From positions 1-57,759 of IMG/VR virus record IMGVR_UViG_3300046011_007876: a stretch of 57,759 bases of DNA. One strand, 5' to 3'. The translations under genes and the position numbers were made by a program. A model generated the notes under the pieces. It was not told the origin of the DNA and did no database searches. It worked only from the letters and a program-made list of their open reading frames with translations. Origin of the DNA: a virus (taxonomy: Duplodnaviria; Caudoviricetes). This document shows positions 1 through 31,778 of the stretch, piece by piece (the stretch's first letter is position 1; every line of letters starts with the position of its first letter).

Positions 1-190
1 CCCAAAGTTTATTTAAGTCTAAAACAGAATCCCATTTGCAGTTAGTAGTTCCATAAGGCAAATCGCAAATAATAGCATCAATTGATTTATCATCAATAAA
101 AGGAAAAACATCAAAGCAATCAGCTTTCACAAAAGTACTGCCACTAACACGTGTTTGGCAAAATGGCTGTTCAGTAATTCTATCAATCAT
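1..190 (-). CDS. Site-specific DNA amino-methyltransferase (N6A/N4C, beta class), 5' part; runs off the window
   Basis: My translation: [57 protein letters not shown]...[11 protein letters not shown] is the typical start and DPPY-type motif IV. Not in the ORF track. Confidence 0.85.
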
Positions 191-267
191 TCGTTCTTAA
201 TTTTAAAGTTTAGTAATTCTATTTAAGTTCTGGTTCAGCCACTTCGCCAAGCCCGATAACGTTATGT
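142..267 (+). mobile_element. attC-like recombination site 1
   Basis: CACTAAC (142-148) ... GTTATGT (261-267) enclose the inverted repeat TTGGCAAAATGGCTG (155-169) / CAGCCACTTCGCCAA (236-250), 13/15 complementary. Confidence 0.7.
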
Positions 268-288
268 GTAAGTGTTCCACCATTCCTT

Positions 289-636
289 CTAATCAACATA
301 TATTTTGTCACCAAATTTTGAATACATAAACATCATTAACAATTCCGCTTCCATATCAACAGAAGAATAGTGTGAGATAACCTCTTCACCGTTTTGATTT
401 AATTGATGTTTTTTTTCAATGAACTCACCTAATTCATCACAGTAATCGGAAAAGATTTTTTTATCTAATACCACATCGCAAATATTTATCAATCGCCACA
501 TCAAATAAATTTGTAAACTACACCCATAACCATATTCAACTATATGTTCACAATCTTTTGGCACTTGACCATTTGTTTTAAATTCGTATTTTTTCATATT
601 TTTTTCTTTTAAAATTTTGTGATTAATAATCCACAC
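289..636 (-). CDS. Hypothetical cassette-borne protein (real start possibly MKKYEF, near 597)
   Basis: ORF fills the space between two attC-like sites. Confidence 0.7.
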   Translation of the reverse strand: MWIINHKILKEKNMKKYEFKTNGQVPKDCEHIVEYGYGCSLQIYLMWRLINICDVVLDKKIFSDYCDELGEFIEKKHQLNQNGEEVISHYSSVDMEAELLMMFMYSKFGDKIYVD

Positions 637-640
637 CTAC

Positions 641-694
641 ACATAACAAAGTGTAAAAAACATTAAAACGATTTTTTACACTCAACCGTTATAA
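641..694 (+). mobile_element. attC-like recombination site 2 (short)
   Basis: ACATAAC (641-647), AGTGTAAAAAA (650-660) / TTTTTTACACT (672-682) perfect inverted repeat, GTTATAA (688-694). 636-647 is complementary (11/12) to 261-272. Confidence 0.7.
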
Positions 695-778
695 CCATTC
701 GGCCATATTATTTTTATCACTTCTACCCATTTGGTCATAAACCTCATCCAAATAAACATCTATTCTAACGTAACTCAT
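689..778 (-). pseudogene. 29-aa ORF, possibly a gene truncated by cassette insertion
   Basis: MSYVRIDVYLDEVYDQMGRSDKNNMAEWL*. It has its own promoter at 794-801, and its stop codon coincides with the TTA of the attC core GTTA. Confidence 0.45.
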
Positions 779-793
779 TTTTTTATATTTTTA

Positions 794-801
794 CAAAGTT
801 A
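794..801 (-). promoter_or_regulatory. Bacteroidota-type -7 promoter element (TAACTTTG) pointing into the cassette array
   Basis: Matches TAnnTTTG; lies just downstream of the ligase terminator. Confidence 0.6.
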
Positions 802-803
802 AT

Positions 804-840
804 AAAAAAAAGTGACTCAACCAAATTAATGGGAGTCACC
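804..840 (-). terminator. Probable intrinsic terminator after the RNA ligase
   Basis: GTGACTC...GAGTCAC stem followed by a T-run on the minus strand. Confidence 0.55.
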
Positions 841-1959
841 TACGTTATTTTTTTCACCATATATCAAGTAGTCAGGGTTGATTACTTTTGATACTTTTCT
901 ACGGTCACCAGTTATAGATTTAACAACAACACCTTCGTGTGGTACTTTGGTACTTTCTATGTTATTATTAAACACAAAAGTATCTTGTATTTCTTTAACC
1001 CATATACCCTGGTATAACAATTCAACCTGTGGTAATTGTAAACAATCAAAATGTACGGTTTCATTTATGTATGGTTGATACACTCCATCAACTTGGACAT
1101 CAAAACCGGCAAATTTAACATCAGTCAACCCATATTCGTAGTTTTTTTGTATACCGGCTCCGTATATCTCACCATATATTACAAAACCTTCGGTTAAATC
1201 AAGTGGCTCATAAGTATCTTTTACGTGATCCCACAACTTACCTCTTATATCGTATTGGTTTGCCACAGTTTTCCATACATCGGTGTCGTAGAATCCTTGA
1301 GAGTCGGATCCCTTTTCTACGTTATGAGAACCATAAACATATTCAAATGCTACCCATTTATTTCCAAAGAACATTTTAACACGGTCCAATAAAGAAAGTT
1401 TTTTCTTTCTTACGATTCCATATCTGGCATTTGTTCCGTGTAACTTACGAGTTATAACAACCTCATCTTCTTCATTGAACATATCTGGTACATTCTTCTG
1501 GTTAGGAAACTTGTAGTAAACGTGGAAGTTGGGGTTTTGGTGGTATTTTATTTTACGTCCACCAACACTTAACTGAACGGTTTTAACTGGGGGTTCGTAT
1601 TTAGTTACACCCAATATAGTCATCATATCATCACCTTCGTTTACATTGTTCTCCAAAGATTTTGGTGCCAAGTATTTGAATGGTATTAATAAGCATTCAG
1701 AATAAACTCCACGAAGTTTAACAGTGCGGACTCTTTGCCCTTTGCGAAGGTAGTTAGTTACACCCATTAAATCAGATAAATCCTGTGGTATTACAGCATC
1801 AGTAGTTGCAACAACAACCTTATCACCAACTTGATATTCACCTTTTTTGGTTATGGCGTTCCATCCACCAACAGTTACTAATTCTATATTATCAGCACCT
1901 GGTATTTCAGACACGGATCCTATTTTTCCTACGTATGCAACACTATTTAAATTTTTCAT
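826..1959 (-). CDS. ATP-dependent RNA ligase (Rnl2/DRB0094-like) with N-terminal OB-like domain
   Basis: Motifs KLHGTN (I), YGEIYG (III), FAGFDV (IIIa), EGVV (IV), KVIN (V); N-terminal IPGADNIEL. Confidence 0.9.
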   Translation of the reverse strand: MKNLNSVAYVGKIGSVSEIPGADNIELVTVGGWNAITKKGEYQVGDKVVVATTDAVIPQDLSDLMGVTNYLRKGQRVRTVKLRGVYSECLLIPFKYLAPKSLENNVNEGDDMMTILGVTKYEPPVKTVQLSVGGRKIKYHQNPNFHVYYKFPNQKNVPDMFNEEDEVVITRKLHGTNARYGIVRKKKLSLLDRVKMFFGNKWVAFEYVYGSHNVEKGSDSQGFYDTDVWKTVANQYDIRGKLWDHVKDTYEPLDLTEGFVIYGEIYGAGIQKNYEYGLTDVKFAGFDVQVDGVYQPYINETVHFDCLQLPQVELLYQGIWVKEIQDTFVFNNNIESTKVPHEGVVVKSITGDRRKVSKVINPDYLIYGEKNNVGDSH

Positions 1960-3148: not shown

Positions 3149-3532
3149 TTATTTCTCTTTTTGTTCTACAATCTCAATTAGCTTTTCAAGACAAACAAGT
3201 TCTGCTTTTTCATAAGTTTTGTAACCATCTTTTGATAAATCACGCGAACCATATTTAAACTTACCTGTTTTATACCAAAAGCAATTCATATCAGTTATCC
3301 AAAAAATTTCAGATTGTAACTGATACTTCTCTCTAAACCATCTAAATGCTTGTTGCCAAGTTAGTGCTAAAATATAATCTTCCTCTCCTTCCAAAAAATC
3401 TATTGTTGCTAATTGAATATCAATTTTCTTATATTCTTCTTGTTCTGTGTACCAATATCCAAAACAAGGCTCATCAAATCCAAGTTGCTTCATCTTTAAA
3501 GCTAACTCATAAGGTACAAATTCTTTTTCCAT
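3149..3532 (-). CDS. Hypothetical protein, tandem paralog A
   Basis: MEKEFVPYELALKMKQLGFDEPC...QAFRWFREKY...CLEKLIEIV. Confidence 0.8.
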   Translation of the reverse strand: MEKEFVPYELALKMKQLGFDEPCFGYWYTEQEEYKKIDIQLATIDFLEGEEDYILALTWQQAFRWFREKYQLQSEIFWITDMNCFWYKTGKFKYGSRDLSKDGYKTYEKAELVCLEKLIEIVEQKEK

Positions 3533-3741
3533 TCTATTCTGATTTAATTTGTTCTACAATTTCAATTAACTTTTCAAGACAAGCAAGTTCTGTTTCTTCG
3601 TAAGTTTTATAATCATTTTTTGATAAATCACGTGAACTATATTTAAACTTACCTGTTTTATACCAAAAACAGTTCATATCAGTTATCCAAAGAATTTCAG
3701 ATTGTAACTGATACTTCTCTCTAAACCATCTAAATGCTTGT
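3161..3741. repeat. 193-bp direct repeat (3161-3353 and 3549-3741)
   Basis: Manual alignment gives 14 mismatches and no gaps. Confidence 0.9.
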
Positions 3742-3947
3742 GAGTAGGTTGGTGCCGATGTAAAATGTTCAGGAATTTCAGAGTTCTTACAAGTGGCAAA
3801 ACCTGTTCTAATATACTCATCTCTATCATCAACACCACAAGGTTTTTCTTCAAAGTTCTCTACTTGATAAAAAGCAAAACAAGACCCATTATACCCAAGT
3901 TTTTTCATCCTTAAAGCAAGTGAGTATATAACAAATTCTTTTTCCAT
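3534..3947 (-). CDS. Hypothetical protein, tandem paralog B (start corrected to 3947)
   Basis: MEKEFVIYSLALRMKKLG matches the paralog A start; TATCTTTG (3952-3959) lies 4 nt upstream. Confidence 0.8.
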   Translation of the reverse strand: MEKEFVIYSLALRMKKLGYNGSCFAFYQVENFEEKPCGVDDRDEYIRTGFATCKNSEIPEHFTSAPTYSQAFRWFREKYQLQSEILWITDMNCFWYKTGKFKYSSRDLSKNDYKTYEETELACLEKLIEIVEQIKSE

Positions 3948-3948
3948 A

Positions 3949-4371
3949 TCACAAAGATAAATGTTTTTTTGCATTTTCCAAAAATAATTCAATATTTTTT
4001 TTACCAACAGGATTTGCCGAATGGACCAAATATTCCGGTAATGGTTGGTTTTCATCCGCACAATATTCAACAAGGAATTTAGCACAATCAAGTCCAGTTT
4101 TTTCTTTGATGTTGTCGTAATCCAAAGTTCCTTTGGTTGCAACATTTCTAAAATATTCATCCATTGCAGTATCACCAAGGTCGTGATCAAATGATACAAA
4201 TTCAGGAGCACCATTTACTTCTAAGTATTGTACGAACTCGTCATAGTTTCTTACAACATCCCAATCATTCTCCCAATAAAACTTATTATGTTTATCAGGA
4301 ACCAATCCTATTGCGTCCTTTGGTGAACGCACGTCATCTAAAAAAAGTTTACAATTCTTCATATAATCCAT
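3949..4371 (-). CDS. Cyclic-phosphate-processing receiver-like domain protein
   Basis: LFLDDVR, VVRNYDEF, SFDHDLG, TGLDCAKFL, VHSANPVG. Confidence 0.75.
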   Translation of the reverse strand: MDYMKNCKLFLDDVRSPKDAIGLVPDKHNKFYWENDWDVVRNYDEFVQYLEVNGAPEFVSFDHDLGDTAMDEYFRNVATKGTLDYDNIKEKTGLDCAKFLVEYCADENQPLPEYLVHSANPVGKKNIELFLENAKKHLSL

Positions 4372-6557: not shown

Positions 6558-7211
6558 TTAACCCACAACTCCTATTAAATTGTCTAAATGGTGATCTCCG
6601 GATATATCAGACCCTACCGGTCTTTTATTCATCATTTTAATGATATCTGAAATATCATATGGATTCATACCATTTCCATCCATTCCAACATCCAATCTTT
6701 TTCCGTTACCAAATTTATTTTCTCTACCTAAATGAACGTGACCATGTAAATGAATTACACCTTTGTTTAGACCGTTCCAGCTTTGGAGTGGGTAATGACA
6801 TAATACAAAGCTTACATCGTTAATTTTAACTTCAAGATAATGGTTGACACTTAAAAACCGATTTTGTATGTCACCTCTGTTATTTTCAATATGATGGTCG
6901 TGATTTCCTAATATTAGATGAATGTTTTTGCAAACCAATCTATCAAGGAATAATCCTATATTATCAAAACCACCAAATGAAACATCACCTAACATTATTA
7001 GTGTGTCGTCTTGTCTTACCATATTGTTAATACCATCAATAATTCTTTCGTTCATTTGTTCAATAGTTTCAAAATCCCTAACCGAATCAACTGGTATTTC
7101 ACCATCCTGGGTTCTCCAGTTTGTCACACCACGAACAATATTTTTATGACCGTAGTGTGTGTCTGAAGTTATGAATACTTTTCCTGTTGTTAATATTTTT
7201 TTAAAGTTCAT
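6558..7211 (-). CDS. Calcineurin-like metallophosphoesterase
   Basis: SDTHYGH, LGDVS, GNHD, CHYP, HGHVH motifs. Confidence 0.9.
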   Translation of the reverse strand: MNFKKILTTGKVFITSDTHYGHKNIVRGVTNWRTQDGEIPVDSVRDFETIEQMNERIIDGINNMVRQDDTLIMLGDVSFGGFDNIGLFLDRLVCKNIHLILGNHDHHIENNRGDIQNRFLSVNHYLEVKINDVSFVLCHYPLQSWNGLNKGVIHLHGHVHLGRENKFGNGKRLDVGMDGNGMNPYDISDIIKMMNKRPVGSDISGDHHLDNLIGVVG

Positions 7212-7223
7212 AATTTTTATTTT

Positions 7224-8177
7224 TTAAGGTAAAACATCACCGGTATAATTAACACTTATCCTTGGATAATCACTGATTCTTCTTGTTACTTCATATTCAC
7301 CTTGGTTTGGTAAATCATCGATTGATCCTACTGGTTTCATATACTGTTCAGATGTCCAATTACTATTATAACGATTAAGATCCATTAAACTTCTTATTCT
7401 GTCAAGTATAGTTGGACCGTCTTCCGCTCCAATATTACCTTGGTGAATATTAATTATATCTGAAATAGAAACTGGTTTATTTCTGGTTTCACCATAAATC
7501 AAATCAATTGTTCTTTCATTTTTTTGTAATTCTTTTCTAATCTTTAAAAAGATTTCATCCGGAATCCAATCTATAAACATTGGACTAACTTCACTATCGT
7601 CTGCGGTCCAAGCTTGGAATTTATCGTCACCATAATCTCTTGAGAAAGCGATTTTAGTATCAATTTTTTTATTAATACAATAAACTAACCTATGTGTTTT
7701 TAAGTATTTGTCCCAATATCTTTCTTGTGTTGTACACCATTTTGTATTTGATCCGTAAACCCTTGAGGCATCAAAACTTAAAGGTGTTAATACTAACCAG
7801 GTGTCATCTTCGTGTATTTTTAAAATTTGTTTTTCAACTTCTTTTTGTTTTTCAATATCTTCAGCAATCTTAACTTGTTCGTGTAATTCAAGAAAATTGT
7901 TATATTTACTAATGTCTTTTTCTTTTATTCTATTAGCTCTTGAGTGTCTTTCAAATTCATTTAAAACTTCAATTTCATTTGAGCCGAACAAAAATACCCC
8001 TAGATAACCTTTAAGTTCATCCAAATTTGGACTGTAATATTGGTTATCCCTTTTAAAGTTTTTAATTAAAAACTCGGTATACTTGTAAGTACCAGTCGGA
8101 TCTAATGATGTTATTATATCAATTAATGATACATTTAAATCCGAATGTTGTTCTTTAAGTTTGTCTAATCTACTCAT
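7224..8177 (-). CDS. Protein with WCT-motif (PcfJ-like) domain
   Basis: IHEDDTWLVLTP...SRVYGSNTKWCTT; related to part of 16163-18118. Confidence 0.55.
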   Translation of the reverse strand: MSRLDKLKEQHSDLNVSLIDIITSLDPTGTYKYTEFLIKNFKRDNQYYSPNLDELKGYLGVFLFGSNEIEVLNEFERHSRANRIKEKDISKYNNFLELHEQVKIAEDIEKQKEVEKQILKIHEDDTWLVLTPLSFDASRVYGSNTKWCTTQERYWDKYLKTHRLVYCINKKIDTKIAFSRDYGDDKFQAWTADDSEVSPMFIDWIPDEIFLKIRKELQKNERTIDLIYGETRNKPVSISDIINIHQGNIGAEDGPTILDRIRSLMDLNRYNSNWTSEQYMKPVGSIDDLPNQGEYEVTRRISDYPRISVNYTGDVLP

Positions 8178-8578
8178 AATTTATACTCAAAACGATTTTT
8201 CATTTGTTCTATTTTATCTTCTGGAACATTGTGTTCGTTAGTTCCTCCGTGTCTGTTTTCAACAATTATAGTAAAAACTTTATATCCATATTTTTTTGCT
8301 AACTCAAAATATGGTTCCATTTCCCATTCTTGTGTAAATGTATTTGAAACTGTAATTCTATCTGTGTTTACTTGGTCTCCTTTTGTTTGCATCCAGGCTT
8401 CAGTTTGTGCTATACAATATTCGTGAGCAAACTTAATTTTTGACCCATCGAATTTGTAATTACCTTCACCATCCATAAAATATTGGTCAGCTTCAACTAT
8501 AATTGAGTTTAATGTTCTGGCAAATGTTGTTTTTCCTGATCCCGGAATTCCTCTAACTATGTATAATATTTTTTCCAT
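8174..8578 (-). CDS. P-loop kinase (AAA_33 / polynucleotide kinase-like)
   Basis: IVRGIPGSGKTT, EADQYF, VSNTF, HNVP. Confidence 0.85.
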   Translation of the reverse strand: MEKILYIVRGIPGSGKTTFARTLNSIIVEADQYFMDGEGNYKFDGSKIKFAHEYCIAQTEAWMQTKGDQVNTDRITVSNTFTQEWEMEPYFELAKKYGYKVFTIIVENRHGGTNEHNVPEDKIEQMKNRFEYKL

Positions 8579-27382: not shown

Positions 27383-28234
27383 TTAATCTACCAAAACTTT
27401 TTGAGAAATATTTTTAAAAATATGTGTGATAACATCTACGGTCCAACCATTTCCTAACATATTGAACCTTTGTGTGTTTGATACAACCGAACTGTAGTTA
27501 TCTGGTACCGTCTGTAATCTTTCGCATTCTAATGGAGAAAACAATCGATCCTCACCAGTTACAGCTTTTATTTCTAAGTAACATTTAGGTGTTATGTTCT
27601 TACCCCAACCGTGTGCTAGTTCACGAGTAAGTGTTGGTGCCTTACCGGTTGCCTTATAATTTTTAGCATAATAAAGTTGTGCTTGAATTGTTTTTGGTGG
27701 AAGGGTCTTGTGTTCACCTGTGTAATCAATAATATCTTTAACTAAGATTCCCTTATCTTCAGGTTGTTCAATACCTGGTATGTTTGTCCAATATAATCTT
27801 TCTCTACTCTGAGCTGAAACCAAATTACTATTTATCCTTATTGGTTCAACACCCATATGTTCTGTAATTACTTGTTCGTGTTCTTTTTTCATTTTAACAT
27901 TTTCAAGTAAAAAATATTTTGGATTTAATTCTTCTTTTAATCTAACAAACTCAAAGAACAACTTACTTCTTGGGTCTTCAAAGTTTAGTCTTTTGCCAGC
28001 AAATGAAAATCCTTGACAAGGTGAACCACCAAACATAATATCAATTTTTGGTAAATCACTTCCTTTAACATCTAAAATATCACCAATCTGAATTGTTTCC
28101 GGATAATTGTGTTGTGTTACCTGGATGGCATATTTATCAATTTCTGAAGCAAAATACTTATCATACTTTATCCCAGCTCTATTAAGAGCAATCTGTCCAC
28201 AGGACATTCCATCAAATAAACTTAATACATTCAT
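27383..28234 (-). CDS. DNA (cytosine-5)-methyltransferase, orphan
   Basis: LSLFDG, GGSPCQGFS, LENV, QSRERLYW, RLQT, LGNGW. Confidence 0.95.
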   Translation of the reverse strand: MNVLSLFDGMSCGQIALNRAGIKYDKYFASEIDKYAIQVTQHNYPETIQIGDILDVKGSDLPKIDIMFGGSPCQGFSFAGKRLNFEDPRSKLFFEFVRLKEELNPKYFLLENVKMKKEHEQVITEHMGVEPIRINSNLVSAQSRERLYWTNIPGIEQPEDKGILVKDIIDYTGEHKTLPPKTIQAQLYYAKNYKATGKAPTLTRELAHGWGKNITPKCYLEIKAVTGEDRLFSPLECERLQTVPDNYSSVVSNTQRFNMLGNGWTVDVITHIFKNISQKVLVD

Positions 28235-29112
28235 AGTCCTTTAAATATATGTGAAATTACATCAACTGTCCACCCATTTCCAATCATTTTTTTTCTTTGA
28301 TTTAATGGTGTAATTGAGGTATAGCCGTCTGGTAATGTTTGTAATCTTTCATATTCTACAATGTTTAATTCTCTTAAATTATTATTAACAATAACACCGT
28401 AATTACACGCAGTATTTAATGTGTTAGTTTTTCCATTACTTACACGTCCACGTCTACTTTTACTTTTTGGGAATTCCAAGTTTACACAATCACCGTTTTT
28501 GGCAAATAAATATCCTATTTTTGTGCCGTTTTTTATTTTAAAAATACCATCATTTATATCTAAAACAATAGGATTGTCATTTATAGTACACTCATCACCT
28601 ATTGGATTTAAAATGTCCAATATATTAATCTTTCTATCTTCAATATTTTTATCAAATGGGATATTGGTCCAATACAATCTCTGTCTTTTTTGTGCTGAAA
28701 AAAACTTACTATCAATCATAACCGGTTCAAAACCAATTGTATCTGTTATTATTTTTTCCCATTCTTTTTTCATTACAACATTTTCAAGAAGAAAATATTT
28801 TGGTTTAACTTCATTTAATACCCTAATATATTCCCAAAATAAACCACTTTTACCATCAAACCCAGAGTTATCTCCGGACCTGCTAAATGATTGACAGGGA
28901 GATCCACCAATTACCAAATCTATTTTTGGTAAAACTGTCGTATCTAAACCAACAATACTACCCAACTGTACTGTATTTGGGTAGTGATGTTGTGTTACTG
29001 TAATTGCGTGTTTATCAATTTCTGATGCAAAATAATTTTTAAACGTGACACCGGCTCTTTGTAATGCTAGTTGTCCACAAGAAATACCATCAAAAAGAGA
29101 AAGTACATTCAT
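28231..29112 (-). CDS. DNA (cytosine-5)-methyltransferase, orphan
   Basis: LSLFDG, GGSPCQSFS, LENV, QKRQRLYW, RLQT, IGNGW. Confidence 0.95.
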   Translation of the reverse strand: MNVLSLFDGISCGQLALQRAGVTFKNYFASEIDKHAITVTQHHYPNTVQLGSIVGLDTTVLPKIDLVIGGSPCQSFSRSGDNSGFDGKSGLFWEYIRVLNEVKPKYFLLENVVMKKEWEKIITDTIGFEPVMIDSKFFSAQKRQRLYWTNIPFDKNIEDRKINILDILNPIGDECTINDNPIVLDINDGIFKIKNGTKIGYLFAKNGDCVNLEFPKSKSRRGRVSNGKTNTLNTACNYGVIVNNNLRELNIVEYERLQTLPDGYTSITPLNQRKKMIGNGWTVDVISHIFKGL

Positions 29113-29912
29113 TATAGATAGTCAAATAATTCAGATGATTCATTACGAAGTCTACGTAGAGCTTTTTCTTTTATTTGTCGAACTCTTTCTTTAGTTAGAT
29201 TAAAATCTGAACCAATATCTTCTAAAGTTCTTGGTGTTCCTGTAAGGCCAAAGTAATCACCTATAATTGATTTTTCACGATCATCTAAAACATTAAGTAA
29301 TGATAGTAATTTGTCTTTTAATAAATCTTTTGTATCAAACCCAGCGTCTGGTGCAACAGCATCTGGATTTTCAATAAGATCAATAAGTGTATCACCTTCC
29401 TCATTGATATTCATATCAAGATTGATAATTGAAGGTAGTGATGTAAACTTGTCATCAAGTTTTTTTCCACTTTGTTCGACTTCTTTTTTAGCTTTTTGTA
29501 AATCCTGAACAACATTAACTGGGAGTCTAATTGTTCTGGCGTTATCATTTAGTGATTGTATAATTGACTGTTTAACCCACCAGACGGCATATGATATAAA
29601 TCTCAAATCTTTGTTCCAATCAAAATTTTTAATTGCCTTCATAAGACCAAGATTTCCTTCAGCAATTAAGTCTGGAAGATCAAGACCTTGATTTTGGTAT
29701 TGTTTTGCAACAGTAATCACAAAACGTAAATTACCTTCCAATAGTTCTTCTTCTATTTTTTTTCTTTCTCTTTCTGAAATCTCATCAGATTTCATTTTTA
29801 AGGCTAATTCTTTTTCACGATCAGGTGTCATAACCTTAATTTTTCTAATGTCTTTTAGGTAGTGATAAATTTCTTCCTGGTTAATTGGGACTCCTGTGTT
29901 TTTTTCTTTCAT
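29112..29912 (-). CDS. rpoD: RNA polymerase sigma-70 factor (RpoD-like, no region 1.1)
   Basis: NLRFVITVAKQY, DLIAEGNLGLMKA, RFISYAVWW, TLEDIG...TKERVRQIKEKALRRLR. Confidence 0.93.
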   Translation of the reverse strand: MKEKNTGVPINQEEIYHYLKDIRKIKVMTPDREKELALKMKSDEISERERKKIEEELLEGNLRFVITVAKQYQNQGLDLPDLIAEGNLGLMKAIKNFDWNKDLRFISYAVWWVKQSIIQSLNDNARTIRLPVNVVQDLQKAKKEVEQSGKKLDDKFTSLPSIINLDMNINEEGDTLIDLIENPDAVAPDAGFDTKDLLKDKLLSLLNVLDDREKSIIGDYFGLTGTPRTLEDIGSDFNLTKERVRQIKEKALRRLRNESSELFDYL

Positions 29913-29916
29913 ATAT

Positions 29917-30435
29917 TTAGGCTTGTTTTGAATATTCGTCTAATTTATCTTTTTCAGCTCTTGTGAGTGAATCAATACCTTGGTCTATAATTTTATCCAA
30001 AATTTCATCCAAAGTCAAATCACAAACGTTATTTTTTAAAAATTCATCAACTTTTTTTCTGTGTTCTTCTAAAAAAGCGGCAACATCAAAACTAAGTTTT
30101 GGTATTTGATTTGTTACTTTAGGTTTTCTTCCTCTTTTTTTCTTACCCATAAGATGTTCAAAGTTACTTTTTTCCATATCGGATGAAACATTTTTTGCAT
30201 TTTGTACAAGAACAAACATAAACTCAGGAACATCTTTTTTTATAAGTTCAACATATTCTTCAACTTCACTTTGTGATAGATTACTTTCAAAGTTGAAAAT
30301 TGAGTGACTTTCTCCGTAAACAAATTTAAGTTTTTCGTCTTTTATGATTTGGACTAGTTCATTTGCAAACTTTTGGTTTGACTCGGTTTCATCCCAGTTA
30401 TCATTACAGGGATAGACAAATAATAAGTATTTCAT
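29917..30435 (-). CDS. Hypothetical protein with C-terminal DUF6576-like helical motif
   Basis: LDEILDKIIDQGIDSLTRAEKDKL; AT-hook-like KKRGRKPK; TATCTTTG at 30454-30461. Confidence 0.65.
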   Translation of the reverse strand: MKYLLFVYPCNDNWDETESNQKFANELVQIIKDEKLKFVYGESHSIFNFESNLSQSEVEEYVELIKKDVPEFMFVLVQNAKNVSSDMEKSNFEHLMGKKKRGRKPKVTNQIPKLSFDVAAFLEEHRKKVDEFLKNNVCDLTLDEILDKIIDQGIDSLTRAEKDKLDEYSKQA

Positions 30436-30494
30436 AGGTTTTTATTTATACGACAAAGATAATAAAAAGTTTCTGATATTTTTATTTTTTTATA

Positions 30495-31778
30495 TCAAAT
30501 TTTTTGTCTATCTAAATATTTAACACATTCTTTTGCAATTGCTTCAGCTAATGGTGGTGGTACTGCGTTACCGACATGTTCACATCTTTTAGTATGGTTA
30601 CCAATAAATTTATAATCTAATGGGAATCCTGTTATAACGGCAGCCTCTCTTACTGTTATACTACGATTTTCTATTGGGTGTAGAGGAAAATTACTATGTC
30701 CTGGTACTAAAGTTGGTGCTAATGAATCTAAATCTAGACGCATTGTACTACCTCTTGAATAAAAATTACTCACTTTTAGATCGTTTGGTAACTCCTCCAT
30801 AATATCTTGTACATTTCCACCTGGTTTTATAAATTTAAATCTGTCCACAGTTTTTTGTGTATGTTTCATTGGTATATTATCAAAATCATCTTTATCATCA
30901 TAATTAATTTTTTTAAAAACATCACCTATTGTTATTGGTTTTAAAAATTTAATATTATCTTTGATGTTTTTGAAATCTAATTTAGTTGTAATTTCTTCTG
31001 AATTATACTTAGGTATTGGATAGTTAAAATCATTTGTTAAATCTTTTCTTGTTGCAACAACTATTATCCTTTCGCGTTTAGTTGCGGCACCATACCAAGC
31101 TGTGTTTAAAATTTTATGTGACACATTATAACCAATTTTATCATATATTTTATATAAATCTTCAATAACAGAAATTAAATAATTATTTTTTTCTAAAATA
31201 TCAATTAACTCATCTTTATTTTTTTTTAAAAAAATTCCTTTATTTAAAAAATCTTTTGTTAAATTATTTTTTTTTCTTAATTCAGCTTTTTGTCCTTTAT
31301 AGTTTTCTAATTCTTGCCAAATAAAATCAACTTTTTTTTTAATTTCTTCTGGTGTTTTTTCAGACAAAACTTTACCATTAATAAAAGCTTTAACATTTTC
31401 AATTATTGATATTTTAGGTTTTAACTCATCAACTAATTCAAGTTGTTTGTGGTAAAAATAATTTCTTTCATCATTTGGTGATCTTTCACCGGCTAAACTA
31501 AAACCTTTACACACAATACCGCCAAACATAACGTCTAATTCACCTTTAGATAGTTTTATTTCATTTAATACATTTTTAACATTAATATCTATTATACTTT
31601 TATTTTCTATATATGCAGTTTCATTAATTTCTGGATTATTAACTAATAGAGTTTTTATACAATCTAAATTATTGTCATTAACATATACTGATTTAAAATT
31701 TTGATTTTTAAATCCAATATGAGACCCACCTGCGCCAACAAATGTTTCAAATATTGTATATTGTTTTTTTTCTGTCAT
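30495..31778 (-). CDS. DNA (cytosine-5)-methyltransferase of a type II R-M pair
   Basis: FVGAGG, GGIVCKGFS, IENV, KRERII, TVREAA..TGFP, VGNAVPP. Confidence 0.92.
   Translation of the reverse strand: MTEKKQYTIFETFVGAGGSHIGFKNQNFKSVYVNDNNLDCIKTLLVNNPEINETAYIENKSIIDINVKNVLNEIKLSKGELDVMFGGIVCKGFSLAGERSPNDERNYFYHKQLELVDELKPKISIIENVKAFINGKVLSEKTPEEIKKKVDFIWQELENYKGQKAELRKKNNLTKDFLNKGIFLKKNKDELIDILEKNNYLISVIEDLYKIYDKIGYNVSHKILNTAWYGAATKRERIIVVATRKDLTNDFNYPIPKYNSEEITTKLDFKNIKDNIKFLKPITIGDVFKKINYDDKDDFDNIPMKHTQKTVDRFKFIKPGGNVQDIMEELPNDLKVSNFYSRGSTMRLDLDSLAPTLVPGHSNFPLHPIENRSITVREAAVITGFPLDYKFIGNHTKRCEHVGNAVPPPLAEAIAKECVKYLDRQKI

Follow-up and report, generated by a model that had tools for sequence, protein, structure and literature searches.

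The minus-strand segment 267..142 is probably (at roughly 80%) a folded-DNA recombination site of an integron-like cassette system that is widespread in Bacteroidota phages, and the methyltransferase gene of this region starts inside the site. The window, that is the whole stretch of DNA analysed here, is an entire IMG/VR virus record of 57,759 b, which is linear and ~20% complete according to CheckV. Its G+C content is ~29% and its minus strand carries nearly all genes. The encoded proteins include SprB repeats, a sigma-70 factor, DnaJ, three C5 methylases and an RNA ligase. The closest annotated relatives for the methyltransferase gene are Flavobacterium phages.

Integrons are the textbook systems of bacterial gene capture and reshuffling. 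Their defining elements are IntI, attI, Pc and promoterless cassettes in which attC follows the gene. The sites described below resemble attC in being AAC...GTT-ended hairpins that conserve structure over sequence, and their cassettes have complementary 7-mers comparable to the integron core and inverse core. As in integrons, the arrays are one-directional, with a tyrosine recombinase at one end.

Two hairpin sites at the left end of the window

The features of the left end are as follows.

2..190, minus strand: 5' part of the methyltransferase gene (63 codons), probably N6/N4-type, truncated at the contig end; DLPYG at residues 43-47
142..267, minus strand: site 1, the whole attC-like hairpin site, ordered 5' box, spacer, 5' arm, loop, 3' arm, 3' box
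267..261, minus strand: 5' box of site 1, ACATAAC, the reverse complement of the site 2 3' box; putative crossover box
260..256, minus strand: spacer of site 1, GTTAT
255..236, minus strand: 5' arm of the site 1 stem, CGGGCTTGGCGAAGTGGCTG
235..170, minus strand: loop of site 1, 66 nt, with an A-rich leader, the ATG (190..188), codons 2-7 and a 15-nt direct repeat (169-183, 208-222)
169..150, minus strand: 3' arm of the site 1 stem, CAGCCATTTTGCCAAACACG, doubling as codons 8-14 (QPFCQTR)
149, minus strand: single T between the 3' arm and the 3' box of site 1
148..142, minus strand: 3' box of site 1, GTTAGTG, giving codons V15 and S16 and the first base of G17
289..597, minus strand: orf102, cargo of the cassette headed by site 2, with no Pfam family
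694..641, minus strand: site 2, 54 nt, with 5' box TTATAAC, a 13-bp stem, an 11-nt loop and 3' box GTTATGT
689..778, minus strand: 29-codon ORF whose stop TAA (691..689) lies inside the site 2 5' box
794..801, minus strand: TAACTTTG, a match to TAnnTTTG that the original prediction took for a phage promoter; candidate motif only

The arms of site 1 form an inverted repeat (150-169 / 236-255, 66 nt apart) in which 16 of 20 positions pair as DNA, and 18 of 20 if G.T is counted. Folded as single-stranded DNA, the gene-sense strand of the site reaches -15.2 kcal/mol (z = -3.14), a value equalled by none of 200 shuffles. The other strand reaches -10.7 (z = -1.39), with 21 of 200 shuffles as good. 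The original prediction had placed this site at 138-232. That range does contain the 3' box, the 3' arm and most of the loop; the other arm and the other box lie beyond it, and the true site extends over 142-267. Its description of the interior agrees with the sequence. The methyltransferase ATG (190) and its A-rich leader lie between the arms, and the first ~17 codons read through arm and core, codons 8-14 coinciding with the arm 169..150 and codons 15-17 with the GTTAGTG box.

Sites were searched for with a home-made finder, which requires AAC...GTT and an adjacent stem and is controlled by shuffling. Its first version paired G.T on the scanned strand, and a strand-neutral version gave an agreeing result. 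In the window, the scan returned two convincing sites, site 1 and site 2, both at the left end, with the caveat that weak or degenerate window sites may escape such a finder. The remaining matches have no TAACG...TGTTA ends, and 0-2 matches per strand were obtained in 10 block shuffles of the window.

Read along the gene strand, the left end forms a chain. The 29-codon ORF, whose stop lies in TTATAAC, is followed by site 2, then by orf102 between GTTATGT and ACATAAC, then by site 1 and finally by GTTAGTG and the methylase. A lone GTTAGAA also occurs just past the ATG of the 29-codon ORF (689..778). The far end of the methylase is visible in relatives, where CACTAAC, the reverse complement of the site 1 3' box, closes the window-type methylase cassette. 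In a near-identical relative, L006, the methylase ORF is 264 aa long and ends in AACTAAC, after which there is no hairpin; the array of L006 and of the window phage is therefore short.

Conserved pairing and a start codon inside the site

A search of viral contigs with the 63 residues of the methyltransferase gave 380 relatives, of which 79 loci were kept. Upstream of the gene, these relatives display several very different arm sequences, which are always self-pairing and framed by constant TAACG and TGTTA. We aligned 60 distinct homologous sites. In this alignment 92.2% of the cells pair, compared with 70.4% after shuffling and 33-46% when the partner is slid. Compensatory changes on both sides were found in 17 of the 20 stem pairs, and the covariation score is 0.486 as against 0.03-0.14 when slid. 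One stem pair is G.U (G.T as DNA) in all 60 sites.

A scan of 350 kb of related loci detected 180 sites in gene-strand orientation, against 12 in the opposite one. TAACG ends 176 of 196 sites on one side, and TGTTA is found equally often (176/196) on the other. The boxes read nnnTAAC and GTTA[G/T]nn, and the RRRY of the attC core consensus is only loosely kept. The spacers are asymmetric, typically 5 nt versus 1-2 nt. Among mismatch-type pairs in 178 stems, 379 are G.T and 114 are A.C, and the gene strand would be the one that folds and recombines. Hybrid sites, or sites without a 5' arm, were seen at L009, L011, L012 and L014, which points to ordinary homologous recombination probably acting as well.

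Two other origins of the repeat were considered at this stage. A chance inverted repeat is ruled out by the shuffles and the covariation. A MITE or an invertase-type inverted repeat was dropped, as the copies diverge but keep pairing and their mismatches are strand-biased G.T.

With respect to the start of the methylase, the frame is closed by stops 3 and 5 codons before the ATG at 190, and an earlier start is therefore impossible. Homologs of the gene are present in the Muminvirus phages tooticki, mumin and filifjonk. The original prediction had left it to homologs to indicate where similarity begins: with the Muminvirus "DNA methyltransferase" it runs from residue 1, at 87% identity over residues 1-63, and the same ATG is annotated there as the start. 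The methylase of Geobacillus phage GBK2 is 44% identical to the window 63 aa and aligns from its own M-I-D. An annotation error does not account for the first 17 residues, since the Muminvirus and GBK2 methylases align from their own starts. As a fragment of 63 aa, the window protein is too short for a firm family assignment and matches only PF01170 (E 0.0098), with the DPPY-type motif DLPYG present. Full-length relatives having the same N-terminus match PF01555 (E 1e-32 to 3e-34), the family also cited in the GenBank annotation of the 87%-identical Muminvirus gene.

The start codon belongs to what is conserved in the sites. Of the 60 distinct homologous sites, 57 contain an in-frame ATG from which reading is open as far as the GTT box, and in 43 of those 57 it stands exactly 14 codons before GTT. 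The 3 exceptions have ORFs of only 4-6 codons after GTT. The GTG of VKADC, put forward earlier as an alternative start, occurs in only 34 of the 60 sites. The N-terminal peptides encoded by the homologous sites comprise many unrelated sequences. Because structure and ATG are kept while the peptides are unrelated, selection acts on pairing and on the start codon in the loop, not on the peptide. Translation probably begins at ATG 190. More generally, the ORF starts inside the site in 92 cassettes, all with sites >100 nt, and downstream of the site in 80. The idea that a site supplies translation initiation and an N-terminal peptide thus survives in part: the start and 14 codons do lie inside the site, as conserved in 57/60, but the site is not lent by a neighbour, since it is linked to its own downstream gene and no pair of sites shares the upstream flank only (see below).

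Evidence on transcription of this region was also sought. TAnnTTTG is the -7 promoter motif of Bacteroidota. The window has 141 matches to it where chance predicts 118 +/- 10, and it is not enriched enough to back a promoter at 794-801, which is kept as a candidate motif only. Scanning positions 1-1000 for sigma-70 promoters gave 4 matches (5.6 +/- 2.6 expected), and a terminator scan found none. By eye, a hairpin followed by a T-run can be seen at ~838-808. Two contigs from RNA libraries, X19 and X20, cover ~690-732 and 788-1500 but neither of the two sites nor the methylase, and, being contigs, they say nothing on transcription, starts or strand.

Cassette exchange, gene inversion and the array-end recombinase

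When the 3' box of a site is compared with the 5' box of its successor, the two are exact reverse complements in 94 of 130 neighbouring pairs, as against 8/194 for the two boxes of one site and 260/3880 under random pairing. Thus, each gene is flanked by its own complementary 7-mers, like integron core and inverse core. The three Muminvirus phages, which have three methylase cassettes and no recombinase, show such a site ahead of each tandem methylase gene. These phages diverge directly after CACTAACGTT at the end of a shared methylase, and the homology between the window and Muminvirus starts at TAACG, in the 5' box ACATAAC of site 1. A lake-metagenome contig (run X7) joins window position 259 to 687 through 6 shared letters, which removes exactly the site 2 stem-loop and orf102. 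The joint was seen in just one contig, 137 nt long and of depth 6.85, where one flank of the joint has no more than 30 letters; it is supportive, not decisive, for cassette loss at the boxes.

The linkage between stem-loops and their flanks is one-sided. Stem-loops at least 85% identical occur in 670 pairs of sites: the downstream flank only is shared by 490 of these pairs, the upstream flank only by none, and both flanks by 14, whereas 166 have neither flank in common. Because the related loci were fetched via the methylase, this count is biased, and it was repeated without the sites of the query gene. In this set (128 sites, 45 pairs), 9 pairs share the downstream flank only, 0 the upstream only, 4 both and 32 neither. 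Conversely, when pairs are chosen by their flanks in the query-gene-free set, similar stem-loops are found in 2 of 226 pairs sharing the upstream flank only and in 10 of 22 sharing the downstream flank only. The outer 3 letters of the 5' box vary freely before one given stem-loop, and the 3' box stays fixed. Because the linkage is one-sided and the outer 5' box letters are free, the moving unit is best described as the stem-loop plus its downstream gene, with the 5' box as the exchange point.

A further type of exchange is seen with a stem-loop that we call type A. The same stem-loop, and with it the same 15 N-terminal residues, precedes two methylase bodies of only 30% identity, whose nucleotide sequences cease to match right after GTTA. 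So exchange at or near the 3' box occurs too. The original prediction had proposed looking for unrelated domains that share such an N-terminus, and this one stem-loop on two methylase bodies provides a partly positive answer.

The site family extends to bacteria. A pattern derived from the commonest arm is present in at least 124 contigs of a collection of species-representative genomes, nearly all of them Bacteroidota. Of 80 loci studied in this collection, 35 have at least 2 sites and 19 at least 3. One array, on a Chitinophagaceae MAG contig (G056), has at least 60 sites over 52 kb, with matching boxes in 36 of 59 neighbours. Chromosomal arrays such as G056 and that of Ilyomonas (L158) share with the phage arrays the GGCTTGGCGAAG...TTTTGCCAAACC arms, the boxes, the box chain and a homologous recombinase; they differ by sites of ~185-190 nt and by genes located on the opposite strand. 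From the N-terminal sequences, inspected by eye, some of the L158 cargo resembles toxin-antitoxin genes and no methylase was noted.

The gene inversion is best seen by comparing G056 with G001, a phage contig of 169.7 kb with at least 38 same-strand sites in the interval 77.8-114.9 kb (37 kb). A strict scan of G001 gives 39 sites versus 1 on the other strand, with matching boxes in 27 of 38 neighbours, and its array contains 18 DNA methylases among 49 ORFs. ORFs of G056 amount to 10,163 aa opposite the site strand and 1,845 aa on it, whereas those of the G001 array amount to 7,840 aa on the site strand and 540 opposite. With the strand-neutral finder, we counted three marks of site polarity, namely AACG at one end, TGTT at the other and the longer spacer beside AACG. 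These marks lie opposite the gene strand in G056 (57, 43 and 58 of 61, respectively) and on the gene strand in G001 (40, 42 and 41 of 43). Hence the initial proposal, that the sites have their usual polarity and the genes are inverted, is confirmed by these marks. In the 19 bacterial-collection loci having at least 3 sites, ORFs are mostly opposite to the sites in 14, on the same strand in 4 and mixed in 1. The same-strand loci are L127, L153, L166 and L182, of which at least L153 and L166 are short MAG contigs, possibly phage DNA. Since the genes are inverted, the site heads its gene, at the 5' end, in phage arrays.

The recombinase is found at the 3' end of the TAACG...TGTTA strand in phage and bacterial arrays alike. 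In G001, the last site is followed by its methylase and then by a 298-aa tyrosine recombinase on the same strand. This order of site, methylase and Xer-like recombinase (270-300 aa, same strand) is shared by G001, G042, G021 and G045, where the recombinase gene is broken. In G017, G008 and G010, a recombinase lies near a site or directly behind a methylase-like ORF. Overall, 13 of 55 array-bearing records searched have a PF00589 match. No recombinase was found in eight complete or near-complete array-bearing records (G003, G004, G005, G009, G040, G049, G050 and G023), and there is no PF00589 match among the window ORFs of at least 100 aa plus ten smaller ones, the window covering ~20% of the genome. 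Searching viral contigs with a single recombinase protein returned only 2 loci, one of them at a contig end. The G056 array ends beside a recombinase of 407 aa, which shares 37% identity with the phage enzyme (E 5e-57) and matches the same family profile; the chromosomal enzyme has an extra N-terminal stretch of ~125 aa.

The top NCBIfam model for the array-end recombinases is NF040815, "site-specific tyrosine recombinase/integron integrase", with 186-210 bits, under the cut-off of 220. TIGR02249 gives 133-181 bits in two stretches, under its cut-off of 265, and in five bacterial genomes searched with this model no protein exceeded the cut-off. The best solved relative of the phage recombinase is the XerA-like protein of Pyrococcus (4a8e), aligned in one stretch with E 1.4e-44. 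Because the phage enzyme has 25 residues where Vibrio IntI4 (2a3v) has 68, the IntI-specific insertion is missing. The likeness to Xer proteins (XerA of archaea, XerC/D) thus lies in the XerA-like structure 4a8e and in the top model NF040815; the differences are that NF040815 scores below its cut-off and that the phage gene is located at the end of a cassette array, not at a chromosome dimer-resolution locus. By its sequence, the array-end enzyme is Xer-like, and the system is not a canonical integron. These data, that is the box chain, gain and loss at the boxes, a recombinase beside the array in several relatives and the homologous bacterial arrays, bear out the initial description of the sites as attC-like.

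Proposed mechanism, alternatives and relation to known systems

In the mechanism that we propose, the mobile unit, read on the gene strand, would comprise the last base of the 5' box, the spacer, the 5' arm, the loop, the 3' arm, the 3' box, the gene body and, lastly, the 3' box in reverse complement. Once the unit is circular, its two 7-mers would pair and close the hairpin. A Xer-like tyrosine recombinase, encoded at the array end in some relatives, would cut in the 5' box, so that the stem-loop would travel with the gene behind it. Folded single strands can serve as Xer substrates, as with the CTX phage, and the array-end Xer-like recombinase probably acts on the present sites. The phage genes are inverted with respect to homologous bacterial arrays, which brings the site to the 5' end of the gene. 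In long sites (>100 nt), the loop carries the leader, the ATG and ~7 codons, and the 3' arm and box encode ~8 further residues whose sequence is set by base pairing rather than by protein function.

Could the hairpins instead be mRNA elements only, that is 5'-UTR clamps on translation or stability without any role in DNA recombination? Such a role would agree with the better-folding strand being the sense strand (as judged by the G.T to A.C ratio given above), with an RNA fold of the site 1 gene strand at -29.6 kcal/mol (z = -3.96) and with a loop that presents the start region. No Rfam family claims the site: at E up to 1 and over six loci, the sole match was a chance one to mir-263. However, mRNA elements do not predict complementary 7-mers around every gene (94/130). 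They account neither for cassette gain and loss exactly at the boxes nor for the array-end recombinase, and the same sites are antisense to the genes in bacterial arrays. We consider this explanation very unlikely; an RNA role may exist alongside recombination. It is unlikely, too, that the sites are conserved linkers between which ordinary homologous recombination shuffles genes, without a dedicated site-specific enzyme. The model for such shuffling is given by the promoter-stem-loop cassettes of T4-type phages, and several observations fit it: similar stem-loops stand beside unrelated genes in 32 of 45 pairs, hybrid or half sites exist, the homology between two methylase cassettes ends at both boxes, and most complete array-bearing phages have no tyrosine recombinase. 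Yet homologous recombination does not make cassette-specific complementary ends. Nor does it explain how structure is kept while sequence diverges, or why the linkage is one-sided (0 upstream versus 490 downstream), and the repeated layout with a recombinase at the array end, in phages and bacteria, speaks for a dedicated enzyme.

A last alternative concerns polarity. If the arrays had the canonical one, the hairpin would belong to the upstream gene and the methylase would borrow its start and N-terminus from the preceding cassette. The box chain by itself fits either polarity, and the same 15 N-terminal residues heading two methylase bodies would be expected from such borrowing. The linkage data decide otherwise, with 0 pairs sharing the stem-loop and the upstream flank only, and with sites downstream of the methylase that differ in 224 of 226 pairs. 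In addition, the outer 3 nt of the 5' box are free before one stem-loop while the 3' box is fixed, and the natural deletion seen in the X7 contig joins 5' box to 5' box. Canonical polarity therefore appears extremely unlikely. We retain the reading of 267..142 as a folded-DNA recombination site that moves with its downstream gene.

This reading departs from integrons in several respects. The attC criterion of a gene upstream, co-oriented with the top strand, does not describe the phage stem-loop, which is linked to the downstream gene. Unlike in integrons, phage genes are inverted relative to site polarity, and the site stands at the 5' end of the gene, where it can hold the start codon. The internal loop of the phage site is of 5 nt on one side against 1-2 nt on the other, and a fixed G.T pair is present where no canonical extrahelical bases could be recognised. 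As for the platform, the array-end recombinases of the relatives are without the IntI-specific insertion and the window is without a recombinase match.

Phage sites of this type have been met before under another description. According to the available portions of their article, Qi et al. 2023 applied IntegronFinder and HattCI to phage genomes and obtained 17 CALINs, i.e. attC clusters without integrase (PMC9892861). One of these, in Polaribacter phage P12002L, comprises two methylases and two predicted attC sites "with divergent directions"; the first, P12002L_attC1, was predicted by HattCI alone and gave no recombination with IntI1 (PMC9892861). From the sequences given there, P12002L_attC1 belongs to the phage site family and has the same 11-nt loop as window site 2. 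Its primer sequence reads along the gene strand ahead of gp35, which is homologous to the window methylase, and attC2 corresponds to the closing box of gp35 taken on the reverse strand. In the same portions of the article, attC2 is reported to recombine with attI1 via IntI1, at G/TTAGGC (the slash marking the crossover) on the strand antisense to the genes (PMC9892861). This crossover position agrees with the putative crossover box of the present sites. The portions at hand describe no site family, inversion, start codons or recombinase. As far as the partly available sources allow, the two-site phage CALIN of Qi et al. 2023 is the nearest published relative. In full-text literature outside subscription journals, we found no report of the inversion, of in-site start codons, of a Xer-like enzyme or of large phage arrays.

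Two further precedents come from sources that were likewise available in part. The IntegronFinder 2.0 survey lists, in the section available, one complete integron within Bacteroidetes proper, that of Salinibacter ruber (PMC9024848). In class 1 integrons, ORF-11 of attI1 is described as providing a translation start, and sometimes a short N-terminal fusion, to cassettes without their own start (PMC8876359). As described there, the two situations are alike in that a recombination site gives a cassette gene its translation start. They differ in that the ORF-11 start lies in the platform attI and serves the first-inserted cassette, whereas here it is part of the site belonging to the cassette and travels with the gene.

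A wider interpretation may be offered tentatively, and we regard it as a possibility rather than an expectation. The site would have a dual use, being at once the folded-DNA substrate of a short Xer-like integrase and the carrier of a leader, a start codon and perhaps a promoter and an mRNA clamp. No Pc would then be needed, and dozens of methylases could be stored and expressed at the same time by one phage, as an anti-restriction arsenal that recombines.

The present findings describe an integron-like cassette logic in phages that differs in three ways: the recombinase is simpler and Xer-like, the genes are turned round, and a start with N-terminal codons is contained in the hairpin. They are relevant to the making and expression of cassettes in the absence of a platform promoter, and to the question of how IntI arose from Xer-like enzymes. 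Sites of 48-130 nt together with a recombinase of 270-300 aa also make up a set of compact natural parts. If the recombinase acts as inferred, Bacteroidota phages would own an integron-like platform for trading DNA methylases, which bears on how phages keep pace with the restriction systems of their hosts.

Stem and loop of site 1

One stem position of site 1, the attC-like hairpin whose loop carries the start codon of the window methylase, is a G.T (G.U) pair in all 60 distinct homologous sites (alignment A3, columns 27 and 121; window position 242 paired with 163). A second stem position is G.T (G.U) in 37 of the 60. A wobble pair kept constant in a stem that elsewhere covaries may serve as a signal for recognition or for the choice of strand. 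The loop also contains a 15-nt direct repeat with 14/15 identical positions (window 169-183 and 208-222), one copy lying within the leader and the other within codons 3-8. This repeat is also kept in sites of the same stem-loop type (type A) from other phages.

At four related loci (L009, L011, L012 and L014; ~110 nt ahead of the ATG of the methylase), the 3' arm is retained as coding sequence and the 5' arm is foreign or absent. These are half or hybrid sites, no longer able to fold.

Other gene groups in the window

Two further gene groups are found on the minus strand of the window:

27383-31778 (-), three C5 cytosine methylase genes (PF00145)
29112-29912 (-), sigma-70 family gene, between the C5 methylase genes
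826-1959 (-), RNA ligase (PF09414 and OB domain)
3949-4371 (-), cREC_REC cyclic-phosphate receiver domain
6558-7211 (-), metallophosphoesterase
8174-8578 (-), AAA_33 kinase-like gene

Two of the three C5 methylase genes are adjacent paralogs, with repeats (27754-27968 and 28635-28849) that are ~71% identical. No site of the hairpin family was seen around these genes (27383-31778). The last four genes listed all lie inside 8 kb and may form an RNA-repair set. A 223-nt tandem duplication, 88% identical (3160-3382 and 3548-3770), gives two small paralogous genes, located at 3149-3532 and in the 3' part of 3534-4214.

Arrays in phages and chromosomes

The 37-kb cassette array of one phage contig (G001, 77.8-115.7 kb; L086-L088) carries 18 DNA methyltransferases among 49 ORFs: 16 of PF01555, one MT-A70 and one Dam. 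Its other cargo includes DUF551, DUF4326 and a PAPS-reductase-like gene. Cultured Flavobacteriales, too, contain sequences that match the site pattern, namely a Riemerella anatipestifer contig (L138) and Flavobacterium isolates (L112 and L174). L138 has four sites on one strand and three on the other, and its ORFs are mostly opposite to the main site strand.

On the chromosome of a Chitinophagaceae MAG (G056), at least 60 hairpin sites extend across 52 kb:

contig 6, 1-58,000 (L241-L243), hairpin sites of ~185-190 nt each
L232:1207-2430 (-), Xer-like recombinase of 407 aa, without the IntI insertion, at the array end

The G056 array resembles an integron-like array of the large, sedentary sort, a kind that is not among the IntegronFinder 2.0 results cited for Bacteroidetes (PMC9024848).
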